Of a DNA stretch of 15,503 nucleotides, positions 5,807-12,993 are shown one piece after another. The notes below the pieces were generated by a model. It did no database searches and was not told the DNA's origin. It was given only the letters and a program-made list of their open reading frames with translations. Each line of letters starts with the position of its first letter. Position 1 is the first letter of the stretch. Both the position numbers and the translations under genes were made by a program. This DNA comes from Chthonomonadales bacterium (lineage in GTDB: Bacteria; Armatimonadota; Chthonomonadetes; Chthonomonadales; Chthonomonadaceae): assembly GCA_038217285.1 (NCBI GenBank), contig JBBQPO010000144.1, forward strand, positions 1 to 15,503, in the 5' to 3' direction.

Positions 5807-5934
5807 GCGACCTCTCCTCCCTCTCTGTAAGGCGTAATGAGCCTATCTTATGCAGGCTTGCGCTTCTTTCCTGCGGGAGTACATGTGATTCTGTCTTTGC
5901 TGTGTGGCAGGGAGGAGGCTCTTCGGGTTCGGGG

Positions 5935-5940
5935 TATAAT
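5935..5940 (+). promoter_or_regulatory. Consensus -10 box (TATAAT) 7 nt before the murJ ATG; possible leaderless promoter
   Basis: TATAAT-gcacatc-ATG(5948), with no SD between them and no clear -35. Confidence 0.55.
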
Positions 5941-5947
5941 GCACATC

Positions 5948-7672
5948 ATGGCAACAACAGATAATCCCGTGCCGGAAGCGGGCTTCGGTGACGGAGATGA
6001 TGGGGACAAAGGCGGACAGAGTAAGGCGCAGCGACGGATCGCGGGGGCGTCCGGCTTTCTCATGGTCGCGGTGCTGCTCAGTCGGGTGCTCGGCCTCGTG
6101 CGCGAGCATGTGATCTCCACACGTTTTGGACAGGGCGTCGAAACCGACATCTATACGGCAGCCTTCACCGTTCCCGACCTTATCTTCTTCCTCATCGCCG
6201 GTGGCGGCCTCTCGACCGCCATTATCCCGACCTTCACACAGTATATGAACGAGGGTCGTAAGCAGGAAGCCTGGCGTATCTTCAAGGTCGTCTGTATCTT
6301 CACCACCCTCATCGTTGCGGGCCTGATTCTGGTCGGGGAGGTGTTCACCTCCGCCCTGATCCGCCGTACCAACCCCGGTTTCACCGAAGAAGAGGTCGTG
6401 CGGTGCGTAGGATTGACGCGGATTCTGCTCCCGGCCCAGATCTGTTTCTTCCTCGGGGGGCTGATGATGGGCGTCCTCCAGACCCGCAACAATATGCGTG
6501 GGCAGGCCTACGGGCCGCTGATCTACAACCTCGGCATCATTTTCGGCGGGGTGGTACTGACGAAGTTCATGCCGGCGGGCAGCGAGATCGCCGGGTTGTG
6601 CTGGGGAGCGGTCGGTGGGGCGCTGCTGGGCAACCTGCTTCTGCAGTGGTATTTCATAAAACGCATGGGCGGCTACTGGGCGCCGGAGAGCCTGCGAACG
6701 ATGCTCAAGGAGCCGGGAGTGAAAGAGGGCGCGCTCCAGGTGTGGTACATGATGCTGCCGATCATTCTGGGCGTCGCGCTGCCGCAAGTGAGTGCGCTGA
6801 TGAATCGCTACTACGCCTCTTACCTCGACAAAGGCACGATGTCGGCGCTGAACCGCGCCAATCAGTTGATGCAGGTTCCGCTCGGGGTCTTCGGGCAGGC
6901 GGTCTCTATCGCGATCCTGCCCACTCTGGCAGCGCAGTTCGTCAAAAAAGATATGGCGGCGATTCGGCGCACCACGAACTTCGGGCTGCGTTTCATCCTG
7001 TTTCTGACGGTTCCCTGCTCGGTGTTGATGATCGTGCTCGCGGTGCCCCTCGTGCAGTTGGCGCTGCAGGGCGGACGATACCATACCGCCGACTCGATCA
7101 CGGCGGCGACCGCGCTGAGCTTCTATTCCATCGGCATCATGGCCTGGTCGGCGCAGGCGCTCATCTCACGCGCCTTCTACTCGATGAAAGATACCAAAAC
7201 GCCGGTGATCGTTGGGACGCTGGTGACGTTCCTGATCTTCGTCCCGCTCAACCCTCCACTGCTCTTCTGGCTGGGCTATCGCGGCCTCGCACTCGCCACC
7301 TCCATCGCGGCCACCGTCAATATGTTCACGCTGTTGTTCCTGTTGCGCCGCCGTCTGCGGGGGATCGAGGGCGGGAAGCTGCTGGCCTCCGTCCTGAAGA
7401 TCGGCTTCGCCTCCGCCTTCATGGGCGTGGTCTGCCGCTGGCTCTACCTGAAGACATCCAACTATCAGGATGTGCTGGCGGCCCAGAGGGCAGCGGCGGA
7501 GGGCGTGACTGCTTTCCATACTGCCCACGCCCTCCCGCACGCCTTGCAGGCCTTGCTACTCTGCTCTGCGGTCGGTCTGGCGATCTATCTTGCGTTCGCG
7601 CTACTGCTCCGCATGGACGAGATCAGCCCGCTGCGCAAGATTCTCCGCCGCTTCGTCCCACGCCACGCCTAG
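5948..7672 (+). CDS. murJ: Lipid II flippase MurJ (MviN), 574 aa
   Basis: LSRVLGLVRE, AFTVPDLIF..IAGGGLSTAIIPTF, QVPLGVFGQAVSIAILPTL, RAFYSMKDTKTPV and GLALATSIA, with about 14 hydrophobic segments. Confidence 0.95.
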   Translation: MATTDNPVPEAGFGDGDDGDKGGQSKAQRRIAGASGFLMVAVLLSRVLGLVREHVISTRFGQGVETDIYTAAFTVPDLIFFLIAGGGLSTAIIPTFTQYMNEGRKQEAWRIFKVVCIFTTLIVAGLILVGEVFTSALIRRTNPGFTEEEVVRCVGLTRILLPAQICFFLGGLMMGVLQTRNNMRGQAYGPLIYNLGIIFGGVVLTKFMPAGSEIAGLCWGAVGGALLGNLLLQWYFIKRMGGYWAPESLRTMLKEPGVKEGALQVWYMMLPIILGVALPQVSALMNRYYASYLDKGTMSALNRANQLMQVPLGVFGQAVSIAILPTLAAQFVKKDMAAIRRTTNFGLRFILFLTVPCSVLMIVLAVPLVQLALQGGRYHTADSITAATALSFYSIGIMAWSAQALISRAFYSMKDTKTPVIVGTLVTFLIFVPLNPPLLFWLGYRGLALATSIAATVNMFTLLFLLRRRLRGIEGGKLLASVLKIGFASAFMGVVCRWLYLKTSNYQDVLAAQRAAAEGVTAFHTAHALPHALQALLLCSAVGLAIYLAFALLLRMDEISPLRKILRRFVPRHA

Positions 7673-7701: not shown

Positions 7702-8886
7702 ATGACGCCGATTGATGTAGAGCGCGCTCGACGGGAGACTCCGGGCTGTGCGCAGGTACTGCATTTCAACAACGCCGGAGCGTCTTTACCGCCTCAGACG
7801 GTCACGGAGACGATGGTCGACTATCTGCGAAGGGAGTCAGAACTCGGCGGCTATGAGGTGGAGTTGGAGCGTGAGGAGGCGATAAGTAACACCTATACCG
7901 CGCTGGCAACGATGCTCCACTGCCGCCGGGAGGAGATCGCTTATGCCGAAAGTGCGACCCGCGCGTGGGACATGGCTTTCTACGGGATTCCCCTGCGGCC
8001 GGGCGACCGCATTCTGACGGGCCGGATGGAGTATGGCAGCAACTGGATCGCGATGCTGCAGAGGGCGCGGCAGACAGGGGCGGTCATCGAGGTCGTGCCG
8101 AGCGACGAAACCGGGCAGATCTGTGTCGAGGCGTTGCGGGGGATGCTGGATGAGCGGGTCAAGCTGATCGCGCTGACGCACATTCCCACCAATGGCGGCC
8201 TGGTCAATCCTGCGGCGGAGGTAGGAAAGATCGCGCGGCAGGCCGGTATTCTCTACCTGCTGGACGCCTGTCAGTCGGCGGGCCAGATGCCGCTCGATGT
8301 TGAGCAGATCGGCTGCGATTTTCTCTCCGCGACCGGACGGAAGTTCCTGCGCGGCCCACGCGGGACCGGCTTTCTCTACGTGCGTGAGTCTGCGCTAGAG
8401 AGGTTGGAGCCGCCGTTCCTGGATATGGCCGCTGCAGAGTGGGTCTCTCGCGACGCCTACCGTCTGCAACCGGACGCGCGGCGTTTCGAAGCGTTCGAGG
8501 CCAACTTCGCGGCTAAAATCGGTCTGGGAGTCGCCGTAGACTACGCACTGCACTGGGGTCTCGACGCGATCCAGGACCGCATCCGCGTCCTGGCCACAAC
8601 CCTGCGAGCACGACTCACGGCACTGCCGGGCGTCACCGTACACGATCTGGGGAAGGAGCAGTGCGGTATAGTCACCTTCACCGTGGACAGACACGATCCC
8701 TGGGATCTCCGCACCCGTCTCGCCGACCAGAGCATCCATATCTGGACGTCCAATCCCGGCGGCACGCGCCTCGACATGGAAGCTCGCCACCTCACCCGGC
8801 TGGCCCGCGCCTCCGTCCATTACTACAATACCGAAGAAGAGATCGACCGCTTCTGCACGACACTGGCCTCTATGACGGCCGCCTAA
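7702..8886 (+). CDS. Class V-fold PLP-dependent enzyme (cysteine desulfurase/C-S lyase-like), 394 aa
   Basis: ATG 7702. LHFNNAGAS, LLDACQSAG, the PLP-lysine motif ATGRKFLRGPRGTG and RASVHYYNTEEEI. Confidence 0.9.
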   Translation: MTPIDVERARRETPGCAQVLHFNNAGASLPPQTVTETMVDYLRRESELGGYEVELEREEAISNTYTALATMLHCRREEIAYAESATRAWDMAFYGIPLRPGDRILTGRMEYGSNWIAMLQRARQTGAVIEVVPSDETGQICVEALRGMLDERVKLIALTHIPTNGGLVNPAAEVGKIARQAGILYLLDACQSAGQMPLDVEQIGCDFLSATGRKFLRGPRGTGFLYVRESALERLEPPFLDMAAAEWVSRDAYRLQPDARRFEAFEANFAAKIGLGVAVDYALHWGLDAIQDRIRVLATTLRARLTALPGVTVHDLGKEQCGIVTFTVDRHDPWDLRTRLADQSIHIWTSNPGGTRLDMEARHLTRLARASVHYYNTEEEIDRFCTTLASMTAA

Positions 8887-8907: not shown

Positions 8908-8939
8908 GAAGATCGGGGAGCCAAATGGCTCCCCGCTTC
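8908..8939. terminator. GC-rich hairpin between convergent genes, a likely shared terminator
   Basis: CGGGGAGCCA (8914-8923) / TGGCTCCCCG (8926-8935) is a perfect 10-bp inverted repeat, extendable by GAAG/CTTC. It lies between the stops at 8886 (+) and 8944 (-). There is no long U-tract. Confidence 0.65.
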
Positions 8940-8943
8940 GTCG

Positions 8944-9276
8944 TCAGTTTTTGGTGGTGCGCCGGGAGGCTCGGCGCATCCATGCGCCTGTGCCGACACG
9001 CTCCATACCGCCGGTCGTTTCCAGCGAATAGGTGGCGTGTGCCGCTCGCAGACGGGCCAGTTGCGCCAGTGTGTCCGGTGCGGCTTCGGTTTCGGGAGAG
9101 TGCGGGGTCTGGGCGTCGGGTGCCCCCGCTGCGAGCAGTGCGAGCAGCCGCTCCAGCGCCGCATCCCGCGCCTGCTCTTCCGCCCTTAGGCGGGGAAGTC
9201 GATGGGACATTTCACGGCGCGGTGTTTTCGTCTCCTGCAAGTTTGTGTTCATCGTAGTAGTCATTGTGCTGTCCAT
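8944..9276 (-). CDS. Hypothetical protein, 110 aa, no recognised domain
   Basis: RBS GAAAGGA 5 nt before ATG 9276. Ala/Arg/Leu/Glu-rich helical composition. Ends just before the hairpin at 8914-8935. Confidence 0.6.
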   Translation of the reverse strand: MDSTMTTTMNTNLQETKTPRREMSHRLPRLRAEEQARDAALERLLALLAAGAPDAQTPHSPETEAAPDTLAQLARLRAAHATYSLETTGGMERVGTGAWMRRASRRTTKN

Positions 9277-9500
9277 CCTGGTCCTTTCTCTGGCCTTTAC
9301 CGCAACAGTGCGAAGGCTCTCCTGCATCCTCTCGTCGGGAAGAGGCTTGCTTATGCTAAAACTCCGTTTGGTGGCTATCGTGACTGCGTCACGGTGCGCT
9401 CCTTTGTCGTACACTCTGTCACTCCGCTGGTTCCCGCGAAAACGGAAGGCGCTTTTGCGTGTTTGCGAGCAAACACGAGTCTGTTTCCGCTTTCACTCAT

Positions 9501-9535
9501 AAAAAATCCCGCCCGGAGATTGGCTTCCGGCGGGG
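9501..9535 (-). terminator. Intrinsic terminator upstream of the 110-aa ORF
   Basis: The minus strand reads CCCGCCGGA-AGCCAAUC-UCCGG(G)CGGG-A-UUUUUU: a 9-bp GC stem with one bulge followed by U6. Confidence 0.8.
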
Positions 9536-9775
9536 CAACTCAAGAGGGCGTCGCAAGGGCTGGCGACGTGTCCGAATGTGGACACATCGTTACCTATGTT
9601 GCAACCCTCCCGGGGCCTTGCCGGAAAAGCAAACTCCTGTGTATTGGCCTGTCATTGCGTGCAATGGTTCTCCCGAAAGATGAGACCGGTTAAAAAGTTA
9701 GCCCCGGCATCGGCAATACGAAACGATATTATCAGGAACTTCTTCACGGAGGTTTTTGGCTCCGTTTGCGCTTAC
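9501..9775 (-). ncRNA. Candidate structured leader (riboswitch/attenuator) or sRNA, family not recognised
   Basis: Bounded by an ECF-like promoter motif and an intrinsic terminator, with several helices and mutually exclusive pairings (see findings). Confidence 0.45.
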
Positions 9776-9780
9776 ACTCT

Positions 9781-9812
9781 ATTAGACAGAAACCGACAGC
9801 CTTTGGTTTCAC
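9781..9812 (-). promoter_or_regulatory. Putative ECF-sigma promoter
   Basis: Minus strand GTGAAAC-N18-GTCTAAT resembles ECF -35 (TGAAAC) and -10 (GTCTAA) elements. Confidence 0.5.
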
Positions 9813-9881
9813 CCTATCGCGTCTTTTTTCACAGATCGTTATCGAAGCGAGTACGCGCTTTGCTAAACGGATCTTTCAGCC

Positions 9882-9910
9882 TTGACTCCTTGGACCCTTA
9901 ATGGTATGAT
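9882..9910 (+). promoter_or_regulatory. Sigma70-type promoter with extended -10
   Basis: TTGACT-N17-TATGAT, with TG at 9902-9903 (TGnTATGAT), upstream of the 9987 gene. Confidence 0.75.
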
Positions 9911-9938
9911 GCAAACAGTCGGGCTTCGGCGAACGACC

Positions 9939-9969
9939 GTGAACACTTACGGCTCGGAAGCGGTCTAAT
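9939..9969 (+). promoter_or_regulatory. Putative ECF-sigma promoter
   Basis: GTGAAC-N18-GTCTAAT directly ahead of the RBS of the 9987 gene. Same motif and spacing as the divergent site at 9781-9812. Confidence 0.45.
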
Positions 9970-9986
9970 GAGGGGGAGGTGCGCTG

Positions 9987-10889
9987 ATGAAATGTAGTCG
10001 CTGTTCTGCGGAGATACCCGCACAATCTCAATTCTGCCTGCGCTGTGGCACGCCCGTGCGTGGCAGCGCGCCTTCCATGACCGGCCCCGTCCGCCCCACC
10101 GCTCCCGCCGTGCCGTTCGCTCAACCCAAATCGAATCGCAATCCGATGCTGATCATCGTGATCGTGCTGCTGCTGGCCGTGATGAGCCTGGGCGCGATGC
10201 TGATGGTGCAGAAGGCTGCCAGGAGCGACAACGGCAAACTGGTCACCGCTCCCGCCAACTCCGGCCCCGGCGGTCTCGTTCAGAAACCGGCCGAGGCGAA
10301 TCCCAATACGACCGTCCAGGCTCCCGCAGAAGCACACCCTAACGGGGTGGTTCAGCAGCCCGACACGACTCAGCCTTTTCCGGCGGATATCGACGACTAC
10401 CTCAAATTCGTCAAGCGCATCGAGCAGAAAAAGCAGGTGCTTATGCGTGCCCAACTCGGCGATGCCCTTCTGATGCTGACACAGGTGAAAGGTCTCTCCG
10501 CAACGATCGAAGAGAAGGACTACACCGACGCGTTCAAAAACATGAAAACGACCATGCAAAAAAATTCGTCGGACTGGAACGCGCTGACGCAGGAGTTCAA
10601 TGGCAGACAGCCGCCGTCCGCCTGTGTCGATCTGCGCAACAAGTTCCTCGATCAACTCGGCAAGATACAGGCCTCCCTGTTCGCGGTCAACGACGCCATC
10701 TCCCATGTCCAGACTGATCCGAGCAGTGTGCTGCACGACCTGACGCAGATGCAGGGGAAAAGCTCGGCTGACGTAGACGCTTCGATTGAAGCGGCGGACA
10801 GCGCCCTCGCCGATGTCTGCGACAAGTACCGTCTCAAAAAGGATTTCAGTATAAGCAGCGATTCCGGCTCCTCTGGCCTGCTTCGTTAG
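9987..10889 (+). CDS. Zinc-ribbon domain, single-pass membrane protein
   Basis: CSRC-x10-CLRCG at the N-terminus, a Pro-rich linker, one TM segment (MLIIVIVLLLAVMSLGAMLMV), a second Pro/Gln-rich linker and a helical C-terminal domain with two Cys. RBS GGGGAGGT. Confidence 0.85.
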   Translation: MKCSRCSAEIPAQSQFCLRCGTPVRGSAPSMTGPVRPTAPAVPFAQPKSNRNPMLIIVIVLLLAVMSLGAMLMVQKAARSDNGKLVTAPANSGPGGLVQKPAEANPNTTVQAPAEAHPNGVVQQPDTTQPFPADIDDYLKFVKRIEQKKQVLMRAQLGDALLMLTQVKGLSATIEEKDYTDAFKNMKTTMQKNSSDWNALTQEFNGRQPPSACVDLRNKFLDQLGKIQASLFAVNDAISHVQTDPSSVLHDLTQMQGKSSADVDASIEAADSALADVCDKYRLKKDFSISSDSGSSGLLR

Positions 10890-10932
10890 TGCGGAGAAAT
10901 TGGAGGACGGTTCCCTGTGAGCCGCGGTCGAG

Positions 10933-12993
10933 CTATGGCCAGGGGAACGAGGGCGTGGGTGTGAAGCGGTCGTAGAGGGCGGGCAGCGTGAACAGGATAG
11001 CCGTGGTGAACTCGCCCAGCACCATGCCCAGAAAGAGCGGGCGGGCGCGAGAGTAGAGCCGCATCCCGCCATAGCGCAGAATGAGAACTTTGAGCAGCCA
11101 GGCCACGAAACAGGGGAACCAGAAGACCATCATCGTCCAGGTTCCCGACAGCGCATAGCCGAGCGGATGCAGAGGAAACCAGAGCAGACGGGTGCGCAGA
11201 GTCGTGATCAGAACGGTGACGACCACGCCGATGATGAAGTTGAGCGTCCCGACGAACGGTAACGGCCCCTGCGACCGGTTCAGGACCGTCGCCGCATTCT
11301 GGAATGCCCAGACCGGATTGCCCTGATAGACATAGCCGTACATCTGCACCGCGCCGAGCTTGTAGGGCAGCGAGATATGCAGATAGCCCGCGACGCCGAG
11401 CGCGACCGTCAGCGCAAGCCCGAACACCCCGACCAGCGACCGCCGTTTTACCCGTACCCCGTCCGCGAACTTCATGGAGTCGAGAAATCCGGTCAGGATG
11501 AGGCCGCGTTGATCGCGCATCCAGAGGCCGTCCAGGAAGGCCAGCGCCGTCAGGTTGGCGTTGCCGAGGTTGCGCGGGTCGCCGATCATGCGGTAGATAT
11601 CTATGGGCCGGAACGACGTCTCGGTCATCAGCATACCCGACTCGCTTACGCTGCGCGCCATCACCAGCGCCACGACGAACAGCAGGACGACCAGCTCGAA
11701 CAGCGCGAGCCAGTAGGACATCCCGAACATCCAGAGCCAGCCCCCCGACAGCGCTACGCACGCGACCAGCCCCCAGAAGGCCGTTCGGTACGACAGCACC
11801 TCGTCGTCCTCCTCCGGCAGCAGCGGCTGCCGCCGAAAGCGGGTCGCCGCCGCCCAGACCCGCCGCAGATGCGGCCGGGCCGCATAGAGCATATAGCCCA
11901 CCAGCACGAGATAACAGCCGATGATCTGATACCCGACGAACAGCTTGCAGCCGTACATCGGCATCGTCTCCGGTTCGTACCCCATTCCCGCCGCGCCCAC
12001 CTCCTCCATCTTCACGAACAGAAAGAAAAACCAGAGCGAAAACAGCAGATCCGTCGGCAGCAGATAGAAGAAGCCTATCGCCGCGAACGACAGATAGATA
12101 TGGAAGAAGCCCATCTGACTGTAGGGCGGCTGTGTGAAGAAGGCGTTGAGGTCGACGTCGGTGATGATGTCGGGAATCGAGGGATAGTACTGATGCAGAC
12201 CTTTGAAGCCGAAGACGAACGCGGCGATCCCGAATCCGATCCAGGTGAGACCGTTTTTGAGGAAGCCGCTCGTCTGCGCCATGCCCGGCCCCGTCGCGTC
12301 CCCGCGTATCATCTCCAGCGGCAACTGCACGAGGGGAAAGGAGAGCTTCTCGTTGTCTACCCACTGCCGCCGCAGTATCACGGCCAGGCAGAGATAGGCC
12401 GAGAAGATCAGCGCGACAAAGACGCCCCACGCCGCCAGCGGCACGATCCAGGCCTGCCAGGGAAGACGTTCTCCGGGCCGCAGCGCCTCGAAAAAGGCGG
12501 TCGAGACGAACTGTTTGGCCGGGCCATGGACGTCCCAGGGCACCGCCCACTGCGGGATAAACTTCGTGAACAGCTCCTGCCAGTGATTTTCGGGAACGGC
12601 GTTGTAGTTGGGAACGACGAGCAGGGGGATCAGTTTCTGCAGCAGCCCGCGTGAGGAGACCATCGAGGCGAACAGCATCATGATATAGATCGTGAACAGT
12701 TCATGCGGCTGTAAGCGCAGCCGTGGCGAGAGCCTCCGGAGCGCCGCCTGCGCCCCGAGCAGCAGCACCAACATGCCGACCACGGCAGGCGGCAGTTGCA
12801 AAAACCCGATCTGTATCTTGCCGACGACAAGCTCCGCATAGCAGACCACCACACAGGTCACGACCACGCAGAGCAGCCCAATCAGCAGTCCCGGCCAGGA
12901 CAGTGCGCTGACGCGCTTCCCGGACGAGGCCGGAGTGTCCTGAATCGTCTCCGGCGTCTCCGGTGGTCGTTGCTGCGGTACCGATTCAGCCAC
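10933..12993 (-). CDS. Polytopic membrane protein, DUF6785/DUF6784-like (putative transporter), 686 aa
   Basis: Many hydrophobic segments and motifs recalled from that family (LRRQWVDNEKLSFPLVQLP, WFPLHPLGY, ILRYGGMRLY..ARPLFLG). GTG start with RBS GAGGGAGG. Family assigned from memory, not from a search. Confidence 0.75.
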   Translation of the reverse strand: MAESVPQQRPPETPETIQDTPASSGKRVSALSWPGLLIGLLCVVVTCVVVCYAELVVGKIQIGFLQLPPAVVGMLVLLLGAQAALRRLSPRLRLQPHELFTIYIMMLFASMVSSRGLLQKLIPLLVVPNYNAVPENHWQELFTKFIPQWAVPWDVHGPAKQFVSTAFFEALRPGERLPWQAWIVPLAAWGVFVALIFSAYLCLAVILRRQWVDNEKLSFPLVQLPLEMIRGDATGPGMAQTSGFLKNGLTWIGFGIAAFVFGFKGLHQYYPSIPDIITDVDLNAFFTQPPYSQMGFFHIYLSFAAIGFFYLLPTDLLFSLWFFFLFVKMEEVGAAGMGYEPETMPMYGCKLFVGYQIIGCYLVLVGYMLYAARPHLRRVWAAATRFRRQPLLPEEDDEVLSYRTAFWGLVACVALSGGWLWMFGMSYWLALFELVVLLFVVALVMARSVSESGMLMTETSFRPIDIYRMIGDPRNLGNANLTALAFLDGLWMRDQRGLILTGFLDSMKFADGVRVKRRSLVGVFGLALTVALGVAGYLHISLPYKLGAVQMYGYVYQGNPVWAFQNAATVLNRSQGPLPFVGTLNFIIGVVVTVLITTLRTRLLWFPLHPLGYALSGTWTMMVFWFPCFVAWLLKVLILRYGGMRLYSRARPLFLGMVLGEFTTAILFTLPALYDRFTPTPSFPWP

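Follow-up and report, generated by a model that had tools for sequence, protein, structure and literature searches.

On the minus strand of a 15,503-nucleotide (nt) contig from a Chthonomonadales bacterium (GenBank assembly GCA_038217285.1, contig JBBQPO010000144.1; this whole stretch is referred to below as the window), we found a conserved unit composed of an extracytoplasmic function (ECF)-sigma-type promoter, a leader RNA of ~280 nt, an intrinsic terminator and a small orphan protein, located beside a divergent gene for a zinc-ribbon membrane protein. The explanation that we favor, with about even confidence, is an ECF-regulated leader with a terminator that attenuates transcription running into the small open reading frame (ORF) and releases an RNA of ~277 nt. 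According to this model, RNA polymerase would start near position 9777 when the cognate ECF sigma factor is active, and most transcripts would end at the terminator and accumulate as a discrete RNA of ~277 nt. Since most transcripts would stop there, the terminator would attenuate expression of the ORF, which would be carried by the read-through fraction, and the terminated leader may double as a small RNA (sRNA). The locus links a non-coding RNA to a defined stress-sigma input, in a family of soil bacteria (Chthonomonadaceae, phylum Armatimonadota). Its central elements are:

9782..9811, minus strand: ECF-sigma-type promoter, with −35 element TGAAACC (9811-9805), 17-nt spacer and −10 element GTCTAA (9787-9782)
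9501..9777, minus strand: predicted non-coding RNA of ~277 nt, spanning the inferred start through the last base of the U-tract
9501..9534, minus strand: intrinsic terminator, a 9-bp G+C-rich stem closed by an 8-nt loop, then A and U6 (9506-9501)
8944..9276, minus strand: small ORF of 110 amino acids from the ATG at 9276 (the likely start; a 106-amino-acid form would begin at 9264), with third-codon-position bias

Searching for the element at the DNA level retrieved it in three of four other genus members, where the aligned stretches are 66-77% identical, and in none of 56 other genomes of the order that were searched; in the window's own genome (G000 below, where C-numbers denote its contigs and L-numbers the loci compared) it is present in a single copy. 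All tests of helices and covariation at the genus level were made on four sequences, the window and the three same-genus homologues. A pattern scan of public genome contigs returned 29 loci, three of which were the same DNA as the homologues already found, and a single pattern scan of a metagenome collection gave 9 loci, none homologous beyond the promoter-like word; because these scans added no homologues, the genus alignment stayed at four sequences. Metagenome contigs L074, L076, L077, L079 and L080, which belong to an unrelated organism, share the same 19-nt word CTGTCTAATAGAGTGTAAG just 5' of a gene start, and this word may be a similar promoter. In the genus alignment the order of the elements is conserved, with a non-coding block that runs from ~9866 to 9501, a spacer, a second conserved block (9393-9277) and then the small ORF.

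To characterize the promoter we scanned the regions upstream of the small ORF in 30 Chthonomonadaceae loci, in the same orientation, for the strict pattern G[AT]AAC[CT]-N14-19-GTC[TA][AG]. The pattern appeared exactly once in 26/30 regions, and a GTCTG variant in two more brings the number to 28/30, compared to a chance expectation of ~0.02 per region by a rough estimate; the two loci without the motif comprise one with a region of only 113 nt and one without a match. Among the 28 sites, G-AAC and GTC are invariant (28/28), A occupies the second position in 27, and the spacer measures 16 nt in 12 loci and 17 nt in 16. A 'TG' located 6-7 nt past the −10 element is also kept in 26-27 of the 28 loci (9775-9776 in the window), pointing to constraint at or near the start site. 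Placing the start 6-8 nt after the −10 element, at this 'TG', we infer that the RNA begins near 9777. Two other high-scoring sites of G000, on C38 and C54, also have TGTAAG right after them. A leaderless peptide starting at the conserved RTG was considered and rejected, as it reads GTG TAA in the genus and its length differs between two species of another genus.

The sigma-W promoter of Bacillus subtilis reads TGAAAC-N16-CGTA. The portion of PMC3326320 that describes the promoter for sigma-E of E. coli gives GGAACTT as its −35 element, and the corresponding portion of PMC3397946 presents CGTC in the −10 region as a common feature of ECF promoters. Measured against the consensus in those portions, the window's site has what is expected of an ECF promoter, namely a −35 element built around an AAC core, separated by 16-17 nt from a −10 element that contains (C)GTC. 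Since its motif matches the ECF pattern, TCTGTCTAATAGAGTGTAAG, which was at first taken for the most conserved part of the RNA, is therefore read as promoter plus start site. On these sequence grounds the site appears to be an ECF-sigma-type promoter, and it would be used by an ECF sigma factor.

When G000 was scanned with a position-weight matrix, the window's site ranked first (30.1 bits), and rank 4 went to a site (22.4 bits) that lies ~300 nt upstream of an ECF sigma factor gene (C244:6899-7543, with Pfam domains Sigma70_r2 and r4_2). This sigma factor has orthologues in 42/42 genomes of the family. Four orthologues within the genus keep the promoter site at 22.4-22.5 bits, and most of the other 25 orthologues examined show a weaker GAAAC...CGTC-type site 126-350 nt upstream; overall, the orthologue upstream regions score at least 13.7 bits in 17/30 cases and show no match in three, one of which is only 108 nt long. 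These sites fit an autoregulated ECF sigma factor, which is a candidate cognate of the window's promoter, and a candidate only because G000 encodes several paralogous ECF sigma factors. The wider region (C244:6597-7543; L081, L082) contains this core sigma gene with a leader of its own of ~270 nt, and a histidine kinase gene lies convergent downstream.

At the opposite end of the RNA, a G+C-rich hairpin followed by a U-tract on the transcribed strand forms a Rho-independent terminator. Its stem (9534-9526/9517-9508) contains a single bulged G at 9514, and because of this bulge a simple terminator scan of the window did not list the terminator at 9534-9501. Within the genus it is near-invariant, with 97.2% of alignment cells paired and no compensatory change; between genera the sequences of its two arms change together. 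RNAfold recovered a terminator in all four genus members and in 13 further loci, giving 17 loci, or 18 when L053, with its weaker U-tract, is included. The lengths of the RNA in the 17 terminator loci (276, 287, 286, 279, 268, 288, 299, 311, 439, 289, 347, 308, 299, 267, 246, 227 and 264 nt) mostly fall between 246 and 311 nt despite the unconserved sequence, with a full range of 227-439 nt.

Nine of the 28 promoter-bearing loci have no terminator and one is ambiguous, and there the promoter lies ~200-260 nt from the ORF. Because in these 9-10 loci the same promoter stands at such a distance before the ORF, it can be assigned to the ORF, and comparison of the sequences places the terminator-bearing RNA within the ORF's predicted leader. 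In the stretch from the terminator to the ORF we found no sigma-70-like promoter, neither in the window nor in the 18 spacers scanned, three or four of which were shortened by the chosen start codons; we infer that read-through is the route to the ORF. Both results argue against an alternative that we consider possible but rather unlikely, in which the ~277-nt RNA is a stand-alone, trans-acting sRNA and the small ORF, served by its own promoter in 9393-9277, is a mere neighbour. Two stretches between the terminator and the ORF bear on this alternative:

9395..9500, minus strand: insertion of 106 nt between the terminator and the 5' untranslated region (UTR) block, present in this genome only and absent from the three genus homologues
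9277..9393, minus strand: a further non-coding block, conserved in four genus members, which forms the small ORF's 5' UTR and contains hairpin CCUCU/AGAGG and the Shine-Dalgarno-like AGAAAGGA

The alternative draws support from the strength of the terminator (a 9-bp G+C-rich stem plus U6), from the variable or inserted spacer, beyond which conservation resumes in a separate block, and from a GTCAC motif, common to several genera, that opens the 9393-9277 block in the genus and in L052, L059 and L061 (L056 has a similar TGTCAC). An RNA whose length is kept while its sequence drifts is also what is seen in many sRNAs. Against it, besides the terminator-less loci and the promoter-free spacers, no single-stranded seed is conserved across 17 genera, and when duplexes with three nearby mRNAs were predicted without constraints, they did not outdo those of shuffles. 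Around the translation starts of these mRNAs (small ORF, zinc-ribbon gene, ECF sigma gene) the predicted duplexes were long and unspecific, not exceeding shuffles in 10 of 12 cases, and the other two cases (5/40 and 2/40 shuffles) were not conserved. An earlier reading of the window's sequence (the original prediction) had offered a standalone sRNA of ~275 nt as one of its options; the length agrees with the predicted 277 nt, and the standalone status stays with this rival.

The leader RNA itself is non-coding, as judged by the phase of its substitutions. In the genus alignment, the variable columns of 9776-9536 show no preference for any of the three phases (37/75, 36/74 and 36/74), and those of the small ORF are concentrated at the third codon position (30/80, 26/81 and 64/81). 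The 236 nt between 9730 and 9495 fold at −85.8 kcal/mol, compared to −74.3 ± 4.4 for 200 dinucleotide shuffles (z −2.64; one shuffle as good). In these respects the original prediction, which had called for a structured non-coding RNA on the minus strand with an intrinsic terminator ahead of a gene, was borne out, and the RNA is conserved. RNAalifold, run from the predicted start on the four genus sequences, returned 69 pairs, six of them with compensatory changes, and five of these six lie in the 5' domain (alignment columns 16-29, 52-61, 70-98, 71-97 and 77-89). The predicted structure, apart from the terminator, is as follows:

9659..9777, minus strand: 5' domain, made of P1, P2, P3 and local hairpins (RNAalifold, four genus sequences)
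9777-9772/9664-9659, minus strand: P1, GUGUAA/UUGCAC, which pairs the 5' end of the RNA
9764-9760/9751-9747, minus strand: P2, a hairpin (RNAalifold)
9738-9732/9676-9670, minus strand: P3, UUCCUGA/UCGGGAG (RNAalifold)
9711-9702/9690-9679, minus strand: local hairpins that hold CCGGGGC, with three covarying pairs
9542..9611, minus strand: 3' domain, with GGGAGG (9611-9606) pairing CCUCUU (9547-9542), GUUGCA (9605-9600) pairing UGCGAC (9555-9550), and a 10-bp hairpin (9589-9580/9573-9564)

In the 3' domain the 10-bp hairpin is paired in 89.7% of cells and the GGGAGG/GUUGCAA helix in 88.6%, both near-invariant and with no compensatory change. Beyond the genus the body of the RNA can no longer be aligned between genera of the family. 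Excluding the terminator and the Shine-Dalgarno sequence, no k-mer of at least 7 nt is common to more than 8 of 17 genera, and when RNAalifold was applied across the family to the last 116 nt of 18 RNAs, nothing but the base of the terminator (six pairs) came out. Single-sequence folds from other genera show a comparable nested stem-loop beside the terminator. Built from the 3' domain plus terminator, a covariance model scored its four seeds at 99-127 bits and other genera at 9-17 bits at the expected place, amid noise of similar score.

These observations bear on the improbable reading that the RNA has no dedicated function, the conserved parts being no more than a promoter and a terminator (for instance to insulate the ORF from upstream transcription), and the RNA being a spacer that evolves and folds merely as a by-product of its G+C content. 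Such a reading would account for a body unconserved between genera, for helices that are mostly invariant within the genus with structure statistics equal to those of shuffles, and for the weak scores of the covariance model outside the genus. Insulation is hard to square, however, with a terminator placed ~280 nt past a dedicated, conserved promoter in 17-18 loci; the conserved length, the z-score of the fold, the within-genus identity of the body and the six compensatory pairs also speak against it.

Returning to the leader with an attenuating terminator, several points weigh against it. The start site, the 3' end and the read-through are all predictions. The bare promoter motif occurs eight times genome-wide in G000, where ~7 matches are expected by chance (a rough hand estimate); because this count is near chance, the promoter assignment rests on conservation across genera and not on the motif alone. 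It is possible that an unconventional promoter resides in 9393-9277 near GTCAC, in which case the ORF would not depend on the upstream RNA. That a 106-nt insertion is tolerated right after the terminator suggests loosely coupled modules. Finally, only four sequences can be aligned for covariation analysis, and across these the whole-structure covariation statistics are no better than those of shuffles, most helices being invariant.

A scan of the whole window at Rfam gathering thresholds gave no matches, and a scan of 9200-10000 at a permissive E-value gave only a chance match on the wrong strand (E 7). Across 20 homologous loci, the Rfam scan found nothing but an unrelated tRNA. The original prediction's statement that the RNA matches no known aptamer is in line with these scans. 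A housekeeping RNA was also considered and rejected, as 6S RNA, RNase P RNA, transfer-messenger RNA (tmRNA) and signal recognition particle (SRP) RNA are all encoded elsewhere in G000: RNase P on C288, tmRNA on C52, SRP on C81, and a 6S-like RNA at C75:5750-5934 on the minus strand (L034). This last, a full-length match of 44.9 bits that is just below the Rfam cut-off of 46.4, is probably the genome's 6S RNA.

The original prediction had further proposed that the RNA acts as a ligand-sensing transcriptional riboswitch, with CCGGGGC either pairing GCCCCGG to close a domain of ~100 nt and leave the terminator free, or contributing to a 10-bp antiterminator helix with AGUUGCCCCG. On the minus strand of the window the stretches invoked are all in place: CCGGGGC at 9707-9701, GCCCCGG at 9616-9610, UCU-UUCG-GGA at 9680-9671, CAUUG-cacg-CAAUG at 9666-9653, CGAUGUGUCC/GGACACGUCG at 9589-9580/9573-9564, and AGUUGCCCCG at 9540-9531. 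The helix proposed for GGGAGG and GUUGCAA is present as well, with GUUGCAA/UUGCGAC at 9605-9599/9556-9550, but GGGAGG occupies 9611-9606, one base off the register implied. These pairings, the position of the terminator before a gene and the lack of a match to any known aptamer all speak for a riboswitch.

Comparison with the three relatives points the other way. The closing helix (9707-9701/9616-9610) is 78.6% paired, with four of its seven pairs broken in some row and no compensatory changes. The antiterminator (9706-9696/9540-9531) is intact in the window alone and shrinks in the relatives to three or four invariant G-C pairs: three pairs (CG, GC and GC) do not vary, the three after them are lost in one or two rows, and the AACU/AGUU half shows gaps or unpaired bases in each relative. 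The CAUUG hairpin (65% paired) is found in the window only, because the relatives have an 18-nt insertion there. As for CCGGGGC, instead of acting as a switch strand it lies in a local hairpin that keeps its pairing in the relatives through compensatory changes. The proposed terminator/antiterminator pair is therefore not conserved in the three relatives, and the proposed helices are largely refuted; a switch that is plausible in a single sequence fails when compared with three relatives. In leaders of this kind the riboswitch aptamer is normally the best-conserved part; here the putative aptamer region defies alignment between genera and shows no conserved core. Because the body of the RNA is unconserved between genera, while the promoter, the terminator and the ORF are conserved, a classical metabolite riboswitch is argued against, and we consider it highly unlikely.

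Two further minus-strand features are relevant to the question of whether read-through is regulated by other means:

9616..9625, minus strand: UCCGGCAAGG block, which mimics the 3' arm of the terminator and is the sole conserved candidate for an antiterminator strand
9838..9866, minus strand: TTAGCA-N17-GATAAC motif upstream of the ECF promoter, both hexamers invariant and the 17-nt spacer varying in sequence among four genus members

Within the first of these, UCCGGC (9625-9620) can pair GCCGGA (9531-9526) through six pairs that are invariant in 4/4 sequences; because of this invariance the helix is beyond a covariation test. When nascent transcripts were folded up to the terminator loop, the 5' arm of the terminator paired with the UCCGGC block in all four genus members. 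The energy gain of this alternative pairing is −10.0 kcal/mol in the window, compared to −4.7 ± 2.2 for shuffles (1/25 as low), an unusual stability that speaks for the riboswitch. The gain falls within the shuffles in the three relatives (4, 8 and 11 of 25 as low), which speaks against the riboswitch, and is mixed in six other genera. According to these folding models, a regulated switch through the UCCGGC block is possible.

The second feature, the TTAGCA-N17-GATAAC motif, may be a weak sigma-70-type promoter or an operator; a TTAGCAA 55 nt upstream of TGAAACC is also present in L048 and L058, which belong to two other genera. Transcripts starting from it would include UCUGUC (9790-9785), able to pair with GGCAAG (9622-9617), with one C-A mismatch in the window and with GGCAGA in the three relatives. 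It is conceivable, if quite improbable, that the element is a lineage-specific riboregulator of the Chthonomonadaceae, an ECF-driven leader in which read-through is genuinely switched as UCCGGC (9625-9620) and the 3' arm of the terminator compete for GCCGGA (9531-9526). Its setting would depend on the fast-evolving 5' domain, on the small protein (autoregulation) or on which of the tandem promoters had fired.

Regarding known systems, MicA and RybB of enterobacteria are roughly 70-100 nt long. The RNA described here differs from them in its length of ~277 nt, in being always directly upstream of and co-oriented with a small ORF, in showing no conserved seed, and in its phylum, Armatimonadota. 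It resembles the sigma-E (ECF)-dependent sRNAs, including MicA, RybB and FoxJ of Fusobacterium, as portrayed in parts of PMC1804206 and PMC11005410, in joining an ECF-type promoter and a Rho-independent terminator on a non-coding RNA, with an output that follows an envelope or stress sigma factor. The succession of promoter, long structured leader, intrinsic terminator and ORF is that of attenuator and riboswitch leaders, and in the portion of PMC7547250 that treats the early-terminated Shiga-toxin transcript, the product of premature termination is likewise a discrete RNA. Unlike attenuator and riboswitch leaders, this RNA lacks a conserved aptamer, a leader peptide and any known site for an antiterminator protein, and its mutually exclusive helix is only putative. 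The promoter is similar to autoregulated ECF promoters, as far as these are presented in portions of PMC3326320 (E. coli sigma-E) and PMC3397946 (CGTC −10), in its AAC core, its (C/T)GTCTA −10 element and its 16-17 nt spacer, and the same motif precedes a conserved ECF sigma gene. It differs from these in the extra, near-invariant 'TG' 6-7 nt after the −10 element, and its sigma dependence is a prediction.

The RNA has no described family and belongs to known kinds, a sigma-dependent leader or an sRNA, in an unexplored phylum. We know of no RNA-based regulation in Armatimonadota, and a full-text literature search gave no paper mentioning Chthonomonas. If read-through is regulated, the locus would represent a new type of attenuator with a defined stress input; if it is not, it would be one more sigma-dependent leader or small RNA.

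The small ORF was found in 31/42 genomes of the family by searching with a single protein and in 36/42 by profile; in two sister families the profile found it in 1/24 and 0/2 genomes. Its product had no Pfam match at E ≤ 0.01, and in NCBIfam only EncD appeared, at E 0.021 and 15.2 bits, far below the 120-bit cut-off. A protein search with the small ORF gave 23 matches including the window's own, all unnamed or hypothetical, and an Atlas protein search gave no usable match. The AlphaFold model (mean predicted local distance difference test score, pLDDT, 65; predicted template modelling score, pTM, 0.29) contains two helices and a small hairpin and is too weak to serve in a fold search. The CCUCU/AGAGG hairpin of the 5' UTR block becomes CUCUC/GAGAG in G002, another genome of the comparison. 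The 106-nt insertion was considered as a repeat and rejected, as it has a single copy in G000; it holds a 10-bp hairpin, listed by the scan on the plus strand as an 8-pair terminator-like site at 9458-9477.

The remaining features of the neighbourhood are:

8914..8935, minus strand: terminator after the small ORF, with a 9-bp stem and a U-rich tail, conserved in the genus with a changing loop
9987..10889, plus strand: divergent zinc-ribbon gene of 300 amino acids, with an N-terminal zinc ribbon (Pfam Zn_Ribbon_1/DZR, below the curated cut-offs, E 4e-5)
9882-9910, plus strand: sigma-70-type promoter of the zinc-ribbon gene, TTGACT-17-TATGAT

Since the zinc-ribbon gene also occupies the divergent position in 10 further loci, which come from several genera, it may be part of the same module as the RNA/small-ORF unit. 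A minus-strand ORF of 398 amino acids at 9876-11072 was considered as an upstream gene and set aside as an antisense artefact, having no Pfam match and a translation that looks antisense. A large gene for a DUF6785/DUF6784 protein (10933-12993, minus strand) converges on the zinc-ribbon gene, and on the other side two plus-strand genes, one for MurJ (5837-7672) and one that encodes a class-V aminotransferase and ends at 8886, are convergent with the small ORF.

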